Source of the DNA: Sphyrna mokarran | Lineage: Eukaryota | DNA length: 41,352 bases | Direction: 5' to 3' | Assembly: GCA_024679065.1 (NCBI GenBank) | Contig: JAGIQG010000307.1 | Coordinates: 1-41,352, forward strand | In this document: piece after piece, positions 1,538 through 25,250 of the stretch | How positions within the stretch are numbered: position 1 is the stretch's first letter | How the letters are laid out: each line of letters opens with the position of its first letter | Position numbers and translations under genes: made by a program | The notes under the pieces: model-generated | What the model saw: the letters and a program-made list of their open reading frames with translations, nothing else | The model's database searches: none | Told to the model about the DNA's origin: nothing

Positions 1538-1876
1538 TTACAGTGTCTCAAGTAACCGTGTCCCAGTCTCCGCCGGTTCAGACGCTCCCTGCCGGGTGTT
1601 CTGTTAATCTCCGCTGCCACATCCAGGAGCAAGCTGCTGGCTCTGTCTTCTGGTACAGACAGAGGGGAAGAAACAACATCGATGCCATCTATACAGCGTT
1701 CCAGAACAGTCCAGTTGTGGAGAGATATTCAAGCGAGATTTCTGAAAATGGGCGTATTTATACACTTACCATTGCGGATTCCCGGATAAATGATTCTGGG
1801 GTGTATTACTGTGCAATCTCCAATTACCCGAAAATGGCCCAAATATTCGGCAATGGCTCCAAGTTAGTGATTATGG
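1538..1876 (+). CDS. Exon: Ig V-set domain with germline-joined J-like segment of a VJ-C1 receptor gene
   Basis: Polypyrimidine tract and acceptor ttcccag|TT (phase 1). Encodes TVSQVTVSQSPPVQTLPAGCSVNLRC...VFWYRQ...YTLTIADSRINDSGVYYCAISNYPKMAQIFGNGSKLVIM, with canonical Cys, Trp, DxGxYYC and FGxG. Donor G|gtaaat at 1877 (phase 1). Confidence 0.93.
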
Positions 1877-1976: not shown

Positions 1977-2282
1977 CGGGTTCTCCCACCATATTCCTCC
2001 TCACCCCGCCGCTGGATGAGATTCCCGATATGAAAAGCGTCCCATTGTTGTGTTTGATCAGAGGTGTGTCTCCCGATCCCTTTCCCATCAGCTGGAATGT
2101 TTCAGGGAGAGATACCGAGGGACAGACCGATTCGGGGACACTGGAGCCGGACGGGACCTACACCGTCAGGAGTTACATCAGCGTCTCGGCAGAAACTTGG
2201 AGAAGCGGCGCTCACTGTACTTGCGCCATTCAAGTCAACTTCAGTGAAAGTGTTCTCAGTGAAAGTGTCTCATCTCAGAGAG
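1977..2282 (+). CDS. Exon: Ig C1-set constant domain of the VJ-C1 receptor gene
   Basis: Acceptor atttag|CG (phase 1). Encodes AGSPTIFLLTPP...VPLLCLIRGVSPDPFPISWNVSG...DGTYTVRSYISVSAETWRSGAHCTCAIQ...SQR, matching C1 motifs PxVFLLxP, LxCLxxxxxPxxxxxxW, DGTYxxxS and WxxxxxxxC. Donor G|gtattc at 2283 (phase 1). Confidence 0.92.
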
Positions 2283-5503: not shown

Positions 5504-7796
5504 ACATAGAACATAGAACATTACAGCGCAGAACAGGCCCTTCGGCCTTCGATGTTGCGCCGACCAATTATGAAAAAAGCAATGACCCACCAAACTAAAC
5601 CATTCCCTTCTCTTCCATAAACTTATCAACTAAACTCTTAAACGCCACCAAACTTGGCGCATCTACAACTGCCACAGGCAGGGCATTCCACTCCCTAACC
5701 TCCCTCTGGGTAAAGAACCTACCTCTGATATCCGTCCTATAACTATCACCCCTTAATTTAAAGCTATGTCCCCTCGTGCTAGCTTTCTCCATCCTAGGAA
5801 AAAGGCTATCACTGTCCACCCTATATAAACCTCTCATCATCTTATATGTTTCGATAAGGTCTTCTCTTAGCCGCCTTCTTTCTAACGAAAAGAACCTCAA
5901 ATCCCTCAGCCTCTCCTCATAAGACCTGCCCTCCATACCAGGCAACATCCTGGTAAACCTCCTCTGTATTATCTCCAATGCCTCTACATCATTCTTATAA
6001 TGTGGGGACCAGAACTGCACACCATACTCCAAGTGCGGCCGCACTAGAGTTTTGTACAGTTGCAACATGACGTTGTGGCTCCGAAATTCAATCCCCCTAC
6101 CAATAAAAGCTAAGATTCCGAATGCCTTCTTAACAACATTATCGACTTGATTGCCTACTTTCAGGGATCTATGAACATATACACCAAGATCCCTCTGTTC
6201 ATCAACACTATTGAGAGTCCTACCATTAGCCCTATACTCTACACATTTGTTATTCCTGCCAAAGTGAATTACCTCACACTTTTCCACATTAAACTCCATT
6301 TGCCACCTCTCGGCCCAGCTCTGCAACTTGTCCAAGTCTCTCTGCAAACTATAACACCCCTCTTCACTATCTACCACTCCACCGACTTTAGTGTCATCCG
6401 CAAATTTACTAATCCATCCTTCAATACCCTCATCCAGATCATTTATAAAAATTACAAACAGCAGGGGCCCCAAAACAGACCCCTCAGGTACACCACTTGT
6501 AACCGAACTCCACGATGAATATCTCCCTTAAACCACGACCCTCCGTCTTCTATCTGCTAGCCAATTCCTAATCCAATAAGCTAAATCACCCTCAATCCCA
6601 TACATCTGCATTTTCTGCAGAAGCCTCCCATGGGCCACCTTATCGAACGCCTTACTAAAGTCCTTATATACCACATCAACTGCCTTACCCCCATCCACCT
6701 CTTTGGTCACTTTTTCAAAAAACTCAATAAGGTTAGTAAGGCACGACCTACCCTTCACAAAACCATGCTGACTATCCCCAATCAATTCATTTCTCTCTAA
6801 ATAACTATAAATCCTATCCCTGATAATTCTCTCCAATACTTTGCCCACAACAGAAGTAAGACTCACTGGCCTATAATTCCCTGGAAGGTCTCTCTTCCCC
6901 TTCTTGAACAATGGGACCACATTCGCTATCCTCCAGTCCTCCGGAACTATACCCGTAACCAATGACGACCTGAAGATCAGAGCCAGAGGCTCTGCAATCG
7001 CCTCTCTTGCCTCCCAGAGAATCCTAGGGTAAATCCCGTCCGGCCCAGGGGACTTATCTAATTTCAAACCGTCAAGAATATCTAGCACATCCTCCCTATC
7101 TACTTCAATACTTTCCAGTTTGCAACCCTGTACCTCAGTGTTCTCCACAACTACATTTACATCTCCCTGCGTGAATGCCGAAGAGAAATATTTGTTCAGT
7201 GCCTCTCCAATCTCTTCAGGCTCCACGCACAACTTCCTACTGCTGTCTATGACTGGCCCTAATCTTGCCCTAACCAATCGTCCATTCTTAACATATCTGA
7301 ATGAAGCTTTAGGATTCTCCTTAATCCTATCAGCTAAAGTCTTCTCGTGTCCCCTCTTAGCTCTCCTCAAGTCACTCTTTAGCTCCCTCCTGGCTAATCT
7401 ATAGCTATCCATTGCACTAACTGAGCCTTCAATCCTCATCCTGACATAAGCCTCCTTTTGCCTTTTAACCAGCAAATTAACTTTTCTAGTACACCACGGT
7501 TCCCTTACTCGACCATTTCCTCCTTGCCTGACAGGGACATACTTATCAAGGACTCGCAGCAGCTATTCCTTGAATAAGCTCCACATTTCAGATGTTCCCA
7601 GTCCCTGTAGTTTCCTAGTCCGACCTATGCACCCTAATTCTCTCCTTATGGCCTCATAATTACCATTCCCCCAGCTATAACTACTGCCCCCAGCTTCCTG
7701 CCTATCCCTATCCATCACTAAGGCGAACGTAACCGAATTGTGGTCACTATCACCAAAATGTTCACCAACTTCCAAGCCTAACACCTGGTCTGGCTC
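5503..7796 (-). mobile_element. CR1-A, 2.3-kb 5'-truncated copy (end of APE endonuclease, RT, 3'UTR)
   Basis: ORFs 7563-7784 (GDSDHNSV endonuclease end), 6528-7475 (KSPGPDG, NYRPVSLTS, QHGF) and 5595-6473 (KFADD). Tail GAACATA repeats at ~5503-5520. Frameshifted. Confidence 0.95.
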
Positions 7797-8134
7797 ATGA
7801 GGTAACAGGGATGGAGTAGGATCGCTGTAAGCGTAGACGCGAGGACCCGAATGGTCTTTTTCTGCGGTATGGGATTCTGCAGTTACTCTCTAACTGATTC
7901 TGTCATTCTCTCACTTCATCTCCCTGTGTGTCCTGTTCGAAAAAAGTGCTCAGTCTCTCTACCACTATCTCTCTCTACCTCGCCTTGTGTTCTGTTGCAC
8001 AAGTGCTACTCTATTGCGTGATGGGAACGTGTGCAAAAAAAAGCGTTTTGCCATGTTCCAGTAAAGTTAGATTGGACAAAATCCTTCGTTTGTTTAATTA
8101 TTTCCTCACTTCCGTTGAGTGAGTGTTTTTGCAG

Positions 8135-8254
8135 ATTCTCCGTCCTCATCCATCTGTAATTTAATGTTTTCCGGGGGTTTGTCGGCCGCGGCGTTTCTGC
8201 TTCTGGGATTGATCCTTGTGGCCGGAAGTATGATCTGCAGGAACCGCCAGAGAG
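8135..8254 (+). CDS. Exon: connecting peptide plus transmembrane segment of the VJ-C1 receptor gene
   Basis: Acceptor tttttgcag|AT (phase 1). Encodes DSPSSSICNLMFSGGLSAAAFLLLGLILVAGSMICRNRQR, a hydrophobic stretch followed by a basic stop-transfer motif. Donor G|gtaatg (phase 1). In frame with the C1 exon. Confidence 0.85.
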
Positions 8255-8392
8255 GTAATGATTGCTGGGAAACGCTGTTACTCCACGGCGCTCTCAATCC
8301 ACTCATTTATCACTGAGTTATTGACACCTCTGAACGGGTTCGGTGTGAAATGTAGCCATTTTAAATTTCATTTCAATCTCTATTTCTAACAG

Positions 8393-8451
8393 GAACCGCG
8401 AACAGTGATGAGGAACTGACAGAATCCAGAGAACACAAACAGGATAAAGAG
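8393..8451 (+). CDS. Exon: cytoplasmic exon 1 of the VJ-C1 receptor gene
   Basis: Acceptor tatttctaacag|GA (phase 1). Encodes GTANSDEELTESREHKQDKE. Donor GAG|gtgaat (phase 0). Confidence 0.78.
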
Positions 8452-8649
8452 GTGAATGAATAGAATTATTGTTACTAAAACACACGGATATTTTTCATTA
8501 ATTATTAATCCGCGATTTAGAATTCGCAACCAACACAGAAAATTCTGGAAATTCTCAACAAGCCTGGCGGCATGACGGATAGATTAAAGTCTCCAGGCCG
8601 AATGACACCTCTTCAAAGTTATATTTTTGTTCAATTTATTCGTGGGTCA

Positions 8650-9170
8650 TTTGATTTGGGTTGATTTATTACTGTCACATATATTAGCATACGTGAAAAG
8701 TATTGTTTTTGCGCGTGATACAGAAAAAGCATACCATTCATAGAGTTGATTTAATATTGTCAAATTTATTGGAATACAATTGTTTCTTGCGCTCTATACA
8801 GAGAAGGCATATCGTTCATAGAGCAGGAAAGGAGCGTGTGGAGAATGTAGTGTTATCGTCATGGATAGGGTGTAGGGAAAGATCAACTTACAGCGAGGTC
8901 CATTCAAAAGTCTGATGGAAGCAGAGAAGAAGCTGTCCTTACGCCAGTTGGTACGTGACCTCAGACCTTTGTTTCTTTTTCCCGACGGAAGTAGGTGAAA
9001 GAGGGAACGTCCGGAATGCCTGGGGTCCTTAATTATGCTGACTGCTTTGCCGGGGGAAGAGGAAGTGTCGAAAGATTCATTGGATGGGAGGCTGGTTTGA
9101 ATGACAGGACATGACTCATTCATGATCCTTTGTAGTTCTTGCAGTCTTGGTCAGAGCAGGAAACATATCA
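8650..9170 (-). mobile_element. Rex1/Babar-like LINE 3' fragment
   Basis: ORF 8794-9123 reads IIKDPRHSGRSLFHLLPSGKR...RTNWRKDSFFSASIRLLN, matching the Rex1-type ORF C-terminus (HPxxxLFxLLPSGRR...SFFPxAIRLLN). Confidence 0.7.
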
Positions 9171-9229
9171 AGCTTATTCACTATGGAAAAATGTTCTTGC
9201 TCTTGAAAGAGCAAGAACATTGAGAGAGC

Positions 9230-10011
9230 AAGAATAATAAATGTGTAGAGTATAGGGCTAATGGTAGGATTTTTAATAGTGTTGATGAACAGAGGGATCT
9301 TGGTGTATTTGTGCATAGATCCCTGAAAGTAGGCAGTCAAGTCGATAAGGTTGTTAAGAAGGCATACGGAGTCTTAGCTTTTATGGTAGGGGGATTGAAT
9401 TTCGGAGCCGCAACGTCATGTTGCAACTGTACAAAACTCTAGTGCGGCCGCACTTGGAGTATTGTGTGCAGTTCTGGTCCCCACATTATAAGAATGATGT
9501 GGAGGCATTGGAGAGGGTACAGAGGAGGTTTACCAGGATGTTGCCTGGTATGGAGGGCAGGTCTTATGAGGAGAGGCTGAGGGATTTGAGGTTGTTTTCG
9601 TTATAAAGGAGGCGGATAAGAGGAGACCTTATTGAAACATATAAGATGATGAGAGGTTTAGATAGGGTGGACAGTTTTATCCTTTTCAGTGATAGCCTTT
9701 TTCCTAGGATGGAGAATGCTAGCACGAGGGGACACAGCTTTAAATTAAGGGGTATGAGTTATAGGACGGATATCAGAGGTAGGTTCTTTACTCATAGAGT
9801 GATTAGGGAGTGGAATGCCCTGCCTGCAGCTGTTGTAGATGCGCCAAGTTTGGTGGCGTTTAAGAGGTTAATTGATAAGTATATGGAAGAGAAGGGAATG
9901 GTTTAGTTTGGAGGGGCATTGCTTTTTATTTTGGTCGGCACAACATCGAAGGCCGAAGGGCCTGTTGTGTGCTGTATTGTTCTATGTTCTATGTTCTATG
10001 TTCTATGTTCT
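9230..10011 (+). mobile_element. CR1-A 3' fragment inserted in an older CR1
   Basis: [19 protein letters not shown], 3'UTR and (TTCTATG)n tail. Confidence 0.93.
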
Positions 10012-10735
10012 GGAGTGTAACGATGGTTTACCAGACTGATTTCGGGAATAGAAGGACTGATGTTTGACGAGAGATTGAAGAGGTTATCATTGTTTTCGCT
10101 CGTGTTCAGACAAATGAGAGGGATTTCACAGACATAAAATTCTAACAGGACTAGATAGGTTAGAAGCAGGAAGGATGTTCCCGATGCTGGGGCAGTCCAG
10201 AAACAGCAATCACAGATTGGGTGATGGGACAGGACCAGTTATTGTGGATTTGGGTAGAGCAGGAAACATACCAAGCGTATTGAATTTGGAAGAACGTCCT
10301 TGCTCTGGAGGAAATGCATTGAAGATTTATCAGGCTCATTCCGGGAATGGCGGGACTGATGTATAACGAGAGGTTGACTAGGTCAGGATTGTTTTCAGTG
10401 GAGTCCAGACAAATGAGGGGATTTCACAGGCTTATGAAATTCTAACACGACTAGACATGGCAGATGCAGGGAGGATGTTGCTGATGCTAGGGGGAGTCCG
10501 GAACGAGGAGCCACAGTCTGAGATTTTAGGTAGACCATCCAGAACAAAGGTGACTAGACATTTCATCATCCAAAACGTGGTGAACCTATGAGATTCATTA
10601 CCACAGGATGTAGTTGACGCCAAAAAATTGAATGTATTTGAGAAGTGGCTAGACATACACTTGGGGGCGAAGGTAATGGGGAGAAGTCAGGATTAGGCTT
10701 TTGGGCTGGACGATCAGCTGTGATCGTAATATGTG
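10012..10735 (+). mobile_element. Old diverged CR1 3' fragments, tandemly duplicated
   Basis: Two related copies of TTTACCAGACTGATT...GAGAGATTG...TAAAATTCTAACAGGACTAGA. Confidence 0.6.
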
Positions 10736-10737
10736 AA

Positions 10738-11047
10738 AACAGCCAGTATAATCAAGGACCCCACGCATCTCTTTTCCACCTCCTTCCTTCGGGGTAAAAA
10801 AATACATCAGTCTAAGGTCACGTGCCAATCGACCCAAGAACAGCTTCTTCCCTGCTACCGTCAGAGTTGACCTGCCTCATATTAAGATGATCTTTCTCTA
10901 CACGTGAGCTATCACTATAATATTATAATCTGCACCCTCGCCATTCCTGTTCCATACACGACACTCTTTGTCACTATTGGACAAGAAGCAGTACTTTTCA
11001 ATACATACTAATATATATGAGGCAAGAATAAACCAAATCAAATCAAA
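10738..11047 (+). mobile_element. Rex1-like LINE 3' end
   Basis: ATAATCAAGGACCCC...AAGAACAGCTTCTTCCCTGCT...AATAAACCAAATCAAATCAAA tail. Confidence 0.65.
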
Positions 11048-11307
11048 ACGTTTCTCCACACAATGAGGGTCGGCTTTCTGGTCACTAAAAAGCTATACAG
11101 AGCCATTATACCTTTGGGACTCTCCAAAGTGAGACGGATAGATTTATGTTAGTGAATGGATTAAGGATTATTCAATGTATGTGTGTGTGTGAGTTGAGCT
11201 ACTCGTCAACCATAAACCCATTGAGTAGAGTGGTGGCGGGGAAGAGGGAAGGAGGTGGGGAACTCAATGGTATGGATTGTATTAACAGACCTTTTTTTCA
11301 TCCACAG

Positions 11308-11352
11308 ACACTTTATGCTCGCCTGGCCTTTAACGAGGATCCAAAACTCTAA
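11308..11352 (+). CDS. Exon: terminal cytoplasmic exon with ITSM/ITIM-like motif
   Basis: Acceptor ctttttttcatccacag|ACA (phase 0, matching the previous donor). Encodes TLYARLAFNEDPKL-stop. The five exons total 869 nt, plus 1 nt from the leader = 290 codons with no internal stop. Confidence 0.78.
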   Translation, partial: TLYARLAFNEDPKL

Positions 11353-13779: not shown

Positions 13780-15065
13780 CTGATGGAGAGGCTTCTGAGG
13801 GATAAGATATATGAACATTTAGAGAAGTTTCAACTGATTAGAAATAGTCAGCATGGTTTTGTCAAGGGCAGGTCATGCCTTACGAGCCGAGTTGAGTTCT
13901 TTGAAAATGTGACTGAACACATTGACGAAAGAAGGGTGGTGGACGTAGTGTACATGGACTTTAGTAAGGCGTTTGATAAGGTCTCCCATGCAAGGCTTCT
14001 GGAGAAGGTGAGAGGGCATGGGATCCAAGGGGCTTTGGCCTCGTGGATCCAGAACTGGCTTGCCAGCAGAAGGCAGAGAGTGGTCTTTTCTGCATGGAGA
14101 TCGGTAACCAGTGGAATGCCCCAAGGATCTGTTCTGGGACCCTGCTGTTTGTCATTTTCATAAATGACCTGGATGAGGAAGTGGAGGGATGGGTTAGCAA
14201 GTTCGCCGACGATATGGAAGGATGCCAAAAGTTGCAGCGGGACATAGACAGGATGCAAGACTGGGCGGAGAAGTGGCAGATGGACTTCAACCCTGATAAA
14301 TGTGTAGTTATCCATTTTGGCAGGAATAATGGGATGAAGAAGTTCAATATAAGGGGTAGGAGTCTTAGCTGTGTTGTAGAGCAGAAGGATCTCGGGGTCC
14401 GGGTCCATAGGACTCTTAAATCAGCCTCGCAGGTGGAGGAAGTGGTCAAGAAGGTGTACGGTGTACTTCATTAATCCAGGAATAGAGTTTAGGAGTCAGG
14501 AGGTAATGATGCAGCTCTATAAGAATCTTGTCAGACCCCAGTTGGAGTATTGTGCGCAGTTCTGGTCGCCTCATTATAGGAAGGATGTCGAGGCTATTGA
14601 GAGGGTTCAGAGGAGATTTACAAGGATGCTGCCTGGATTGGGAGGCAGGCCTTATGAAGATAGGTTGAGGGAGCTGGGACTCTTCTCACTGGAGAGACGT
14701 AGGTTGAGAGGCGACCTGATAGAGGTTTATAAAATGTTGAGAGGAATAGATAGGGTGGACTCTCAGAGACTATTTCCCCGAGCTGAAATGGTCACTACGA
14801 GAGGACGCAGATTTAAGGTGCAGGGAAGCAAATACAAAGGAGATGTCAGGGGTAGGTTTTTCACTCAGAGGGTGGTGAGTGAATGGAACCGACTGCCGAG
14901 GGAGGTTGTTGAGGCAAACTCACTGGGGTCTTTTAAGAGACTTTTGGATAACTATATGGAAAAGAATAGGATAGGGGGCTATAGATAGGTCTGTGGATTG
15001 GTGGATGTGATCGGTGCAACTCGTGGGCCGAAGGGCCTGTTTGTGCTGTATGCTTGTTCTATGTT
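13780..15065 (+). mobile_element. CR1 LINE subfamily B, 5'-truncated, with small deletions
   Basis: ORFs 13756-14163, 14043-14474 and 14461-14988 (QHGF, DFSKAFDKV, KFADD, YCAQFWSPHYRKD). The 3'UTR differs from subfamily A. Confidence 0.93.
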
Positions 15066-19475: not shown

Positions 19476-20374
19476 AACTCTGATTAGTAAATCTCGCAAA
19501 GGTAACTGAAAGTCAGTATTACAAGCATAATTTTCAAAACTAGTCTTGTTATAGACACAGAAAAAGTTCAAAGAACTGAAAACATACAATAGACTACTCT
19601 GGTAATTCGGCTGAAGGGGGATTCAATGGCGCGACAACACCTTGAGTTTCCTCAGCTGATGTCCACTTTTGCGCCAGAAATTTGACAATTTTAGAATTTA
19701 GCTAAGATGCTATCACGCAATTAACTTAACATGATCTCATCTAATATTTTTTGTGTCGTCTATTCATGGCAACTCCATAATCTGAATTATAACTTGACAC
19801 TTAAAATATTGATCTGTCACTTGTTCTTTAAACTAACAGAAGTTCACTCCTTAAACAAAATGGCATCCTGTTTGCTTAGCAATACATAACAATAATTTCA
19901 ATTGGTTTTGTGAGGAAGCCAAAACTAGTCAATCTGCTGGAGAAGGGCTTGGTCATCTGGCAGAATTCCCAGGTTGGACCCCCTGTACCCAATCCAAAGT
20001 TACATTATTTGCCTCTTTAATCAACGCACAATGCCATAATCATCCCAAAGTTTAAGTTACGTAGAACATAGAACAGTACAACAAGTCCTTCAGCCCTTCG
20101 ATGTTGTGTCGACCTATGTCCAAACCCAAGATCAAGCTATCCGCCCGCCTATCACTCTGGTTATATTTGTAGCAGAGTTTTATGTTTTAGCTGACTTACT
20201 CACACAATCAAGTCCTTGAGTTATGAAATTTAACGCTAGCAGTTTATTAGCCATTCGTTTTGAAAATATCATTACTGCATTATTTAATACCCATTTCATT
20301 CTAAAGCCTTCTAATATGATACAATATGCTTGCGCATCACAATGTAATAACAGTGAGATTTTGATTTGTTTTGG

Positions 20375-21175
20375 GTTGCATTATATTGAGATGTGGAATC
20401 ATGCTGTGCTTTATTAGATTGAAATGTGGAATAATGTTGAGTTATATTAAATTCAGATGTAGAACCATACTGGGTTTCATCAGACTGAGATGTGGAATCT
20501 TATTCTGCTGCATGAGGTTGTGATGTGAAATCATGCTGAGTTTTATCAGATTGAGATTTGGAGTTATATTGTGTTCTATTGTATTGTGATGTTGAGTCAT
20601 ATTGCGCACTTGTTTGAGATTGAGATGTGGAATCATGCTGAGTTTTATTAGATTGAGATGTGGAATCATATTTTGTCACATTAGAGTGATATATTGAACA
20701 GCCTTGTGCGTATTAAATTGAAATGTGGAATCATATTGTGTTGAATTAGATTGAGATGTCAAATCACGTTGAGTTGCGTTATATTGAAATGAGGAATCGC
20801 TTTCCTTTGTGTTAGATTGAGATGTGGAATTAGATTGTGTTATTGTAGATTGAGATGTGGAATTATAACGTGTTATATTAGATTGAGATGCGGAAACATA
20901 TTGAGTTGCATTGGATTGAGATGCGGAATTGCATTGTGTTGTCTTCGAATGAGATGTAGAATCATGTTACGTTGTATTAGATTGAGTTGCAGAATCATAA
21001 TATGTTAGACTGAGATGCGGAATCACAGTGAGTTGCATTACATTGAGTTGTGGAATCGTATTGTGTTAGATTGAGATGTGCAACATATTGAGTTGCATGA
21101 GATTGAGATGTGGAATCATATTGTGTTATTTTAGATTGAGATGTGTAAATATATTGTGTCGTGTTAAACTGAGAT
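20375..21175. repeat. 33-bp tandem minisatellite, left part
   Basis: Consensus ATTAGATTGAGATGTGGAATCATATTGTGTTGT. Spurious ORFs show 11-aa periodicity. Confidence 0.9.
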
Positions 21176-23064
21176 AGAACATAGAACATCGAACAATATA
21201 GCACAAACAGGCCCTTCGGCCTACGAGTTGCGCCTATCACATCTACCAATCCACAGACCTATATATAACCCCCTATCCCATTCGTTTTCATATATTCATC
21301 CAGAAGTTTTTTTTTAAAAGACCCCAGCGAGTTTGCCTCAACAACTTCCAACGGTAGCCGATTCCATTCACTCACCACCCTCTGAGTGAAAAACTTACCC
21401 CGAACATCCGCTCTGTATTTGCTTCTCTGCAACTTAAATCTGTGTCCTCTCGTAGTGACCATTTCAGCCCTGGGAAATAGTCTCTGAGAGTCCACCCTAT
21501 CTATTCCTTACAACATTTTATAAACTTCTATCAGGTCGCCTCTCAACCTACGTCTCTCCAGTGAGAAGAGTCCCAGCTCGCTCAACCTATCTTCATAAGG
21601 CCTGCCTCCGAATCCAGGCAGAAACCTTGTAAATCTCCTCTGCACTCTCTCAATAGCCTCTACATCCTTCCTATAGTGAGGCGACCAGAACTGGGCACAA
21701 TACTCCAAGTGGGGTCTGACAAGAGTCTTATAGTACTGCATCATTACCTCCTGACTCCTAAAGTCTATTCCTCGATTAATGAAGGCCAGTACACCGTAAG
21801 CCTTCTTGACCACTTCCTCCACCTGCGAGGCCGATTTGAGAGTCCTATGGACCCGGACCCCGAGATCCTTCTGCTCTACAACACAGCTCAGACTCCTACT
21901 CCTATTGGTCCTTTGGTCGGCACAACATCGAAGGCCGAAGGGCCTGTTCTGTGCTGTAATGTTCTATGTCCTTATATTGTACTCCTTCATCCCATTATTC
22001 CTGCCAAAATGGACCACTACACATTTATCCGCGTTGAAGTCCATCTGCCACTTCTCCGCCCAGTCTTGCATCCTGTCTATGTCCCGCTACAACTTTTGAC
22101 AGCCCTCCAGACCATCCACAACATCACCGACTTTGTATTGTCGGCGAACTTACTAAACCATCCCTCCACTTCCTCATCCAGGTCATTTATGAAAATGACA
22201 AACAGCAGGGGACCCAGAACAAATCCTTGGGGCACTCCACTGTTTACCAAACTCCATGCAGAACAAAACCTATCCACAACCACTCTCTGTCTTCTGCCGG
22301 CAAGACAGTTCTGGATCCACGAGGCCAAAGCCCCTTGGATCCCATGCCCTCTCACCTTCTCCAGAAGCCTTGCATGGGGGACCTCATCAAACGTCTTGTT
22401 AAAGTCCATGTACACTACGTCCACTGCTCTTCCTTCGTCAATGTGTTCAGTCACATTTTCGAAGAACTCAACTCGGCTCGTAAGGCATGACCTGCCCTTG
22501 ACAAAACCATGCTGACTATTTCTAATCAGTCCAAACTTCTCCAAATGTTCATAAATCTTATCCTTCAGAAGCCTCTCCATCAGCTTACCAACCACTGAAG
22601 TCAGACTCACCGGTCGGTGACTTCTGGGCTATCCCTGTTCCCTTTCTTAAAGATAGGAGCCACATCCGCAATCCTCCAATCCTCCGGAACCTCTCCCGTT
22701 TCCATGGACGACGCAAAGATCATCGCCAGGTGCTCCGCAATCGCTTCTCTCACCTCCCACAATAACCTGGGATACATCCCATCCGGTCCCGGCGACTTGT
22801 CTATCTTGATAGAATTTAACAGGTCTAACACATCCTCTTTCCTAACTTCCACATACTCAATCTTTTCCGTTTGCCTCAAACCTGCAGTACAACCTCCCAG
22901 TTCACTTTCTACCGTGAATACCGAGGCAAAGTACTCATGAAGCACCTCTGCCATTTCTTCCGGATTCACACAGACGTTTCCCCCTTCACCTTTTATAGGT
23001 CCTACCCCTTCTCGTCTCATCCTTTTACTTTTGACATATTTGTAGAAGGCCTTGGGATTCTCCT
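21176..23064 (-). mobile_element. CR1-B, 1.9 kb, inserted in the 33-bp array
   Basis: ORFs 22607-23020, 22077-22610, 21508-21822 and 21259-21495. Tail AGAACATAGAAC at ~21176. Confidence 0.93.
21901..21969 (+). mobile_element. ~65-bp CR1-A 3'UTR tip nested inside CR1-B
   Basis: TTGGTCGGCACAACATCGAAGGCCGAAGGGCCTGTTCTGTGCTGTAATGTTCTATG interrupts the host GACTCCTAC|CCTTATATTG. Confidence 0.85.
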
Positions 23065-25250
23065 TGTGGAATTGTAGTGTATTGTGTTCGAATGAGAAGT
23101 AGAATCATTTTGTGCAGTGTTACATTGAGTTGTGGAATCATGTTGTGTTATATTAGAGTGAGATGTGAAATCGTTTGCGTTATATTGAGATGTGAAATCA
23201 TATTGTGTTTTGTCAGGTTGACATGATGAATCATATTGTGTTGGATTAGATTGAGATTTGCAATTGTTTTTTTTATTGTATAACAATTAAATATAGTGTT
23301 GTATTAGATTGAGACGTGGAGTCATATTGTGTTGTTTAAGAGTGAGATGTTGGATTGTTCTATGTTGTATTACATTGAAATTTGGAATCATATTTGTGTT
23401 GTATTAGATTGAGATTTGAAATCATACTGTGTTGTATTAAATTGAGATGTGGAATCATATTGGGCACTGTTCGACTGAAATGTGGAATCATATTCAGATG
23501 CATTAGATTGAGATTTGGAATCACATTGTCTTATGTTAAATTGGAATTTGGAATCATATTGTGTTTTATTAGATTGAGATGTGAAATTGTATTGTGTTGT
23601 GGTCAGTTGAGATGTAGAATCATATTATATTTTATTAGATTGAAATGCGGAATCATATTGTGATGTATTAGCTAGAGATGTTGAATTGCTTTTTTATTGT
23701 ACTAGATTGAGATGCAGAATCATATTGTGCTATATTACATTGAGATGTGGAATCATATTGTGTTAGATTGAGATTCGGAATCATAGAGAGTTGTATTTGG
23801 TTGAGTTGTGGAATCGTATTGTGTTAGATTGAGAAATGGAATCATATTGAATTGCATTAGAATGAGTCGTAGAATCATATTGTGCTGTACTAGAGTGAGA
23901 TGTGGAATCATATTGCGTTGAATTAAATTGGGGCGTGGATTTACACAGTGATGTGTTAAACAGAGATGTAGAATCATATATTGTGCTGTGTTACATTGAG
24001 ATGTAGAGTCATGATGAGTTATATTAAATTGAGATGAGGAATCATACTATGTTGCTTATATTGAGATGCAAAATCGTACTATATTCTATGAGATTGATAT
24101 ATGGAATCGTATTTTGTGGTATGTGATTGAGATATGGAATTGCACTGTTTTGTATTAGATTGAGATGAGGAATCTTTTTGTGTTATACTAAGTTGATATG
24201 TGAAATCATGTTGTGTTCAATTACATTGAGATGTGGAATCATATTGTTAGACGTATGAGATTCTCATGTGGAATCGTATTGCTTAATAATATATTGAGAC
24301 GTGGAAACACATTCTGATCTATAAGGTTGAGATTAGGAATCATTATATTGAAACATAAAATTGTTCCAGATTGATATATGGAATCCTACTGTATGAGATT
24401 GAGATATGTAATCGCATTGTTTTGTGTAAGATTGAAACGTGGAATCGTATTGTGTTATATTAAGTTGACAAAGTTAACTTGGAATCATGTTGTGTTCAAT
24501 GAAATTAAGATGTGGAAGCATATTGAGTTGAGTTGTATAGTGTTGTGGTCAAATGAGATGTAGAATCATATTTTATTAGATTGAGATGTATAATCATACT
24601 GTGATATACTAGTTTGATATGTTGAATCTTTTTTATTGTATTAGATTGAGATGTAAAATCATACTGAATTGCATTAGATTGTGTTGTGGAATCGTATTGT
24701 GTTAGATTGAGATGTAGAATCATATTGTGTAGTTGTATTAGATTTTGATGTGGAATCATATTGAGTTGCATTAGCCTGAGATGTGAAATCATGTTGTGTT
24801 TTATTGGATTGAGGTATAGAATCATATTATGTTTATTAGTTTGAGATGTGGAATCATATTGTGTTTATTAGATTGGGATGTAGAATTATATTGTGTTTAT
24901 TAGATTGAGAAGTGGAACTATGTCGAGTTTTTGCAATCATACTGTGTTACATGAGGTTGTGATGTGGAACCATGCTGAATTTTAATAGAGTGAGCTTTGG
25001 AATCATATTGTGTAGTAATAGATGAAAATAAGGAATCACACTGTGTTGTACAAATTAAGACATGGAATCATATTGTGTTGTATTGGATTGAGATGTGGAA
25101 TCATCTTGTGTCGTTGTATTAGGTTGAGATGTGAATTGCGTTCTGTTGTACTAGATTGGGATGTGGAATCGTATTGTGTTGTATTAAATTGATATATAAA
25201 ATCATATTTGTTGTATTATATTGAGATGTGAAATTGTATTTTGTTGTTTT
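23065..25250. repeat. 33-bp tandem minisatellite, right part
   Basis: Same consensus as 20375-21175. Confidence 0.9.

Follow-up and report, generated by a model that had tools for sequence, protein, structure and literature searches.

A predicted inhibitory receptor with a germline-joined VJ-C1 ectodomain in Sphyrna mokarran, and its PRARP-like gene family in sharks

We analysed a 41,352-nucleotide stretch of DNA (the window) that is one entire contig, G000:C891, of the assembly of Sphyrna mokarran (GCA_024679065.1, contig JAGIQG010000307.1). It carries a gene for a candidate inhibitory receptor of the immunoglobulin (Ig) superfamily, of which the exons for the membrane anchor and cytoplasmic tail are our main subject. 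Five exons, all with AG/GT ends, join into a single open frame and consist of a variable (V) exon, a C1-set exon, and three exons encoding the transmembrane (TM) segment and tail. The features of the gene are as follows.

1538..1876, + strand: V exon with the germline-joined J motif FGNGSKLVI (Pfam V-set, E 2e-14; AG/GT ends; heptamer scan)
1977..2282, + strand: C1-set exon (Pfam C1-set, E 8e-10; splice ends)
8135..8254, + strand, phase 1/1: connecting peptide, TM segment and start of the tail (splice ends; matches RefSeq models P0002/P0004)
8155..8157, + strand: hinge cysteine, predicted to form an inter-chain disulfide (column C237, almost unchanged between sharks and chicken PRARP1)
8161..8235, + strand: uncharged TM segment of 25 amino acids (composition and hydropathy)
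8393..8451, + strand, phase 1/0: first tail exon, 59 nucleotides, with acidic SDEE and final codon E (splice ends; joints in run X4)
11308..11352, + strand: last coding exon, TLYARLAFNEDPKL-stop (splice ends; joints in run X4; conservation)
11308..11331, + strand: tyrosine motif T(-2) L Y A(+1) R L(+3) A F(+5), with the Tyr codon at 11314-11316 (conservation; SH2 preferences)

The ectodomain resembles an antigen receptor chain whose V and J segments are joined in the germline. Both the V-set and the C1-set domain score above the Pfam cut-off and precede a single TM segment, and the V region is one 339-nucleotide exon that ends in FGNGSKLVI, with the J-like segment already in place. No separate J was found, and a heptamer scan of positions 1401-2300 found no heptamer of a recombination signal sequence. 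This agrees with the original prediction, made from the bare sequence, of an ectodomain like that of the T-cell receptor (TCR) with a C1 domain. The V domain of this copy also has an extra Cys ahead of the first canonical Cys. Searches of the PDB returned only Ig and TCR chains. A rearranged TCR or Ig light-chain gene is ruled out by the uncharged TM segment, the signalling tail and the multicopy organization with fixed J; a retroelement artefact is ruled out by exons that are spliced and conserved, and membership of UrIg/UrIg2 by the presence of only one C1 domain.

The TM segment, LMFSGGLSAAAFLLLGLILVAGSMI (8161-8235), is 25 residues long, contains no K, R, D, E or H, and has a best 19-residue Kyte-Doolittle mean of 2.39, which bears out the earlier claim that it is uncharged. 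Ser-Met at 8227-8232, just past the TM segment, replaces the Arg-Arg of most paralogues and is a private mark for read assignment. The tail is much as had been described: it is 40 residues long, has an acidic SDEE site at 8404-8415, and includes exactly one tyrosine, which lies 29 residues after the TM segment within the motif TLYARLAF. The claim that E-T-L-Y-A-R-L starts at a phase-0 exon boundary holds for T-L-Y, which opens the last exon, but not for E, whose codon closes the 8393-8451 exon. The window has 481 acceptor-like sites, counting both strands, and a single one opens with such a motif, the site at 11308.

The predicted use of this last exon is supported by spliced contigs and by gene models. 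In three contigs from run X4 (a related organism, taken as RNA by guess, whose contigs may stem from paralogues), 8451 is followed directly by 11308 over a GT..AG gap of 2856 bases, with 54 letters on the short side, and two join 8254 to 8393 with just 21 letters on the short side. One more X4 contig, which is paralogue-like, joins 8451 to 11312 with four different letters between, and one weak contig (depth 5) reaches 11518 without an AG end. Contigs of run X1 continue into an intron and may be DNA. The exon chain is the same in RefSeq models from Mustelus and Heterodontus, which end in ETLYARL. The Mustelus isoform P0001 skips the 59-nucleotide exon, which puts the last exon out of frame and loses the Tyr, and the frame that results is also the tail of the Heterodontus gene P0269, which has an Arg in its TM segment; the Heterodontus isoform P0006 skips the TM exon. 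We propose that skipping of the 8393-8451 exon could offer a simple way to switch, by splicing, from an inhibitory to a neutral tail.

The tyrosine motif is conserved within this genome and beyond it, as had been anticipated. An in-frame xxYxxL is kept in 34 of the 39 examined copies of the last exon of this gene type (A-type), and among these 34 A(+1) and F(+5) are each found in 34/34, T(-2) in 32/34 and L(+3) in 34/34, while +2 varies (R in 26/34); Y and L are set by the selection rule xxYxxL, whereas A and F are not. The codons vary silently, with TAC in 22 and TAT in 12 copies for Tyr, TTT in 21 and TTC in 13 for Phe, and similar variation in the Leu codons. In other sharks and rays, 23 of the 25 A-type proteins that include both a TM segment and a tail retain the motif, once partial models and near-duplicate isoforms are set aside. 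An alignment of 24 rows shows almost no change of the Tyr or the hinge Cys as far as turtles, alligator, amphibians and birds, and the motif aligns with TEYAMV (T-x-Y-A-x-V) of chicken PRARP1. The canonical TxYxxV occurs in the tetrapod orthologues (chicken PRARP1, turtle, alligator and caecilian), and S or I occupies -2 in a few relatives. Orphan A-type last exons, with no TM or V exon nearby in the DNA examined, lie at G000:C1027:697238, 718570, 736105, 749993 and 1824147, and two of these five have lost the Tyr by a point change.

The gene belongs to a large family made up of two related gene types. A search of the same genome located, on contig C1027 (0.79-2.85 Mb, split matches merged), 36 A-type V exons with at least 44% identity, interleaved with 34 B-type C exons, both counts being lower bounds and the A-type having been counted by eye. 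Detailed reading covered approximately 0.68 of the 2.86 Mb of C1027, chosen around genes, and included 14 B loci. In that DNA, 14 of 39 A-type units are without an open in-frame V and C. The two types are paired, alternating on C1027 and standing head-to-head on C894, where one A/B pair lies apart from the main cluster (G000:C894:2351072-2394870, L002-L006). The A gene on C894 groups with ray orthologues (99/93), and hence C894 may be a conserved ancestral locus. B chains have an uncharged TM segment and a hinge Cys, and a terminal P-x-Y-A-S-L motif is present in the three genes read; the exon that encodes it has 33 copies by DNA search. The closest named proteins are from Mustelus, Heterodontus, Cetorhinus and Scyliorhinus.

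Searches link this family in two steps to PRARP of tetrapods. A library search with one Heterodontus member found V-C1 proteins in turtles, alligators, amphibians, lungfish, coelacanth, sterlet and a hawk, and a search with the hawk (Accipiter) protein reached a cluster with chicken PRARP1 (QBF67926.1). When PRARP1 was searched back, the top 28 of 44 matches in the hammerhead genome were A-type V exons, and PRARP1 is 31% identical to a Mustelus member over 175 residues. A 43-row tree built from V+C1, in which Ig light chains were the sole outgroup and one Ig light-chain row had been dropped, separates the family from Ig light chains at 100/98 and puts shark B together with a second reptile type at 93/92. 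This tree and a V-only tree were built without SIRP, NITR, CD8 and NKp30 rows. Among the proteins compared, chicken PRARP1 is the closest known relative, and the likeness to the lamprey TCR-like molecule of which the original prediction was reminded is one of analogy. The lamprey molecule has a V and a second Ig domain, a TM segment and a tyrosine-based inhibitory tail.

Chicken reportedly has two PRARP genes, whose products are said to carry tails with immunoreceptor tyrosine-based inhibitory or switch motifs (ITIM or ITSM), to form disulfide-linked homo- or heterodimers, and to be present on B and T cells. To our knowledge cartilaginous fish lie outside the described range of PRARP. Cited statements here and below refer to excerpts of the papers named. 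PRARP is named once in the excerpt of PMC10751288 and once in that of PMC11599192, and neither describes a shark cluster. Our literature search, which did not extend to supplements (those of PMC10751288 could bear on priority), found no paper describing this cluster.

The original prediction had called for a search for an activating paralogue with a charged TM segment, and charged-TM paralogues, predicted to be activating, were found. Seven of the 39 TM units examined have an Arg in the outer part of the TM segment, and the motif is kept in 0/7 of these versus 30/32 of the others (p 2e-6); the seven represent only four sequence lineages, and two of them had little downstream DNA examined, with no last exon seen nearby. 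V and C are intact in only two of the seven (V at C1027:1062779 and 1329670), both of which stop in the first tail exon and have lost the Tyr codon from the last exon. An outer-TM Arg accompanied by a tyrosine-less tail, the combination found in 7/7 here, recurs in Heterodontus P0269 and Mustelus P0287 (2/2, p 0.003). The same combination was also observed in B-type P0037, P0283 (Chiloscyllium) and P0100 (Rhinoraja) and in a lungfish member (set P0037, P0283, P0100, P0034).

Two inverted genes on C1027 have nearly identical ectodomains and opposite anatomy. The leader, V and C of 1062779(-) and 1117565(+) (L053 and L051/L052) are 99.84% identical over at least 3747 bases, yet 1062779 has an Arg and a short tail while 1117565 has an uncharged TM segment and a tyrosine tail. 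In its 3' half the 1117565 gene is a 99.35% match to an orphan TM-tail unit (1025001-1035595), and this gene may be a real hybrid or an assembly join, which are indistinguishable from the sequence here.

Paired receptors are defined as having similar ectodomains, with inhibitory members that carry a tail motif and activating members that combine a TM Arg or Lys with a short tail (PMC3533184). Judged by anatomy, the shark family contains both kinds, tail-motif members and TM-Arg short-tail members, and this provides the strongest indirect support for the uncharged, tyrosine-bearing members being inhibitory. The genome also has two TM exons of zeta-family adaptors that include the Asp. PMC4016189, which treats the paired-receptor idea in general terms, states that the FcR gamma chain appears with bony fish, and our two zeta-family matches do not settle the timing of its origin.

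We regard it as likely that the exons studied supply the membrane anchor and tail of a VJ-C1 receptor that does not rearrange and belongs to a PRARP1-like lineage in sharks, and that the conserved tail Tyr would be an inhibitory docking site for SHP phosphatases. The gene is most likely an inhibitory member of an expanded PRARP-like paired-receptor family of approximately 70 genes and two chain types, and the tail probably recruits SHP-2 or SHP-1. Binding of a ligand by the variable V domain would lead to phosphorylation of the tail Tyr by Src-family kinases, and the phosphotyrosine would recruit SHP-2 (or SHP-2L/SHP-1) and so dampen activation in leukocytes. The hinge Cys is predicted to make a disulfide-linked dimer, in which case two tails would offer two phosphotyrosines to tandem SH2 domains. 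The Arg-TM short-tail paralogues would signal via CD3zeta/FcRgamma-type adaptors and form the activating arm. The claim of an inhibitory receptor of natural killer (NK) or checkpoint type is supported by use of the last exon, conservation of the motif and the existence of charged-TM, tyrosine-less paralogues; the inhibition itself we infer.

Several observations weigh against this interpretation. A single motif is a much poorer activator of SHP2 than two linked ones (PMC6994217), and each chain here has one Tyr rather than the two needed for full activation. The motif was rightly called ITSM/ITIM-like and is conserved as such, but TxYxxL falls outside both strict consensus sequences given in PMC12151841: T at -2 departs from the ITIM, (S/I/V/L)xYxx(I/V/L), and L at +3, in 34/34 intact copies, departs from the ITSM, TxYxx(V/I). 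The splice support comes from a related species and possibly from its paralogues. With Ig light chains the only outgroup, the placement of shark A as sister to the PRARP1 clade (86/85) is not starred, and in the V-only tree the family falls in a polytomy with TCR-alpha/delta V. Five of the seven outer-Arg units are frameshifted or without V and C in the DNA examined, and three intact A-type genes pair a mid-TM Arg with the tyrosine motif (G000:C1027:789440, 935676 and 1709157). For this copy in particular, a leader exon was found neither in the window nor in the redundant contig C868. The window starts 1537 bases before V, and this upstream part is mostly repeat. C868 is a near-identical second assembly of the window with the same exons (identical over 2593 compared bases and 99.5% over 8761 elsewhere), and it stops at the same base upstream of V. 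The leaders of paralogues lie approximately 0.7-2.2 kb upstream of V, so the leader of this copy may be just outside the contig.

The Tyr could instead be mainly a sorting signal of the Yxx-hydrophobic type, recognized by AP-2 or AP-3 in endocytosis and aided by SDEE, so that the receptor would cycle rather than signal. Y-A-R-L fits the general pattern of such signals, the Tyr lies 29 residues from the TM segment and near the C-terminus, and L(+3) is invariant. However, the conserved A(+1), T(-2) and F(+5) with a free +2 match SH2 preferences (PMC12151841), SDEE is not kept in divergent paralogues, and loss of the Tyr along with gain of the TM Arg would be left unexplained. We consider this explanation unlikely, although it is the better placed of the alternatives.

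Less probable still is a reading of the motif as a genuine switch motif, which would bind an adaptor of the SAP/EAT-2 type and could, depending on the cell, co-stimulate. T(-2) in 32 of 34 copies and TxYxxV in the tetrapod orthologues would fit a switch, but the L at +3 in every intact shark copy lies outside the ITSM, and the link to SAP is weak because TxYxxL is not within that consensus. It is just as improbable that this copy is a silent or decaying duplicate without a protein in a family that is otherwise inhibitory, a reading in keeping with the lack of a leader in the 1537 mostly repetitive bases upstream of V, with the 14 of 39 units that lack an open in-frame V and C, and with RNA-type support that comes from related species and is in no case confirmed from its own, but opposed by five open exons with canonical splice sites and by leader distances in paralogues that would let the contig simply end too early.

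A docking site for SHP phosphatases remains our preferred reading of the tail. There is nothing unusual in an Ig-superfamily receptor with a single tyrosine motif, and the tail is ordinary for the PRARP family as well; the novelty is the expansion of the family and its predicted activating arm, not the tail. What in chicken is a two-gene curiosity appears in sharks as a family that is large and diversifying, with an inhibitory arm, a predicted activating arm and an ectodomain like an unrearranged TCR chain. More tentatively, it is possible that sharks run an NK-type paired-receptor system of approximately 70 germline-diversified, non-rearranging PRARP genes with TCR-alpha/delta-like VJ-C1 ectodomains and two chain types, in which inhibitory dimers would give SHP-2 two phosphotyrosines and activating twins would arise repeatedly by Gly-to-Arg change and tail loss, down to a pair with identical ectodomains and opposite tails. 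If this were true, PRARP would date to the jawed-vertebrate ancestor, and the genes would be candidate missing-self or major histocompatibility complex-sensing receptors of sharks. If signalling and a ligand were confirmed, cartilaginous fish would have a system resembling NK receptors, and VJ-C1 receptors a role apart from RAG rearrangement.

In the remainder of the window, no B-type gene was found. A long degenerate short-period tandem repeat and many fragments resembling long interspersed nuclear elements occupy the introns and the 3' part (20360-25200, 1-1260, 5510-7800, 9240-10010 and 13800-15060).

Several known systems share parts of this architecture. Lamprey NICIP likewise has a V and a second Ig domain, a TM segment and a tyrosine-based inhibitory tail, and recruits SHP-1 and SHP-2 (PMC5071834). 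However, its second domain is of the C2 set and it has two ITIMs, and we draw the likeness as an analogy only. UrIg/UrIg2 (PMC12227049) and NKp30 are, like the genes described here, non-rearranging VJ genes of sharks. UrIg2 also has C1 domains; it has nine of them, in contrast to the one C1 domain and signalling tail found here, and the excerpt of PMC12227049 contains no occurrence of ITIM or VJC1. Mammalian KIR, LILR and PILR (PMC3533184) are also clustered genes with similar ectodomains, in which tail-Tyr members stand against short-tail members with a TM Arg or Lys. We liken them by anatomy only, and they differ in that the shark ectodomain is an antigen-receptor-like VJ-C1 rather than C2 domains or a lone V, with one motif per chain.

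The greatest likeness is to PRARP itself, with which the shark genes share a non-rearranging VJ-joined V, a second domain of C1 type, a hinge Cys, an uncharged TM segment, a single terminal T-x-Y-A-x-V/L, and two gene types side by side. The differences from PRARP are the L in place of the V of chicken PRARP1 at +3, the number of genes, approximately 36 of A-type and 34 of B-type gathered in one 2.3-Mb cluster with a separate head-to-head pair, and the presence in sharks of Arg-TM tyrosine-less paralogues.

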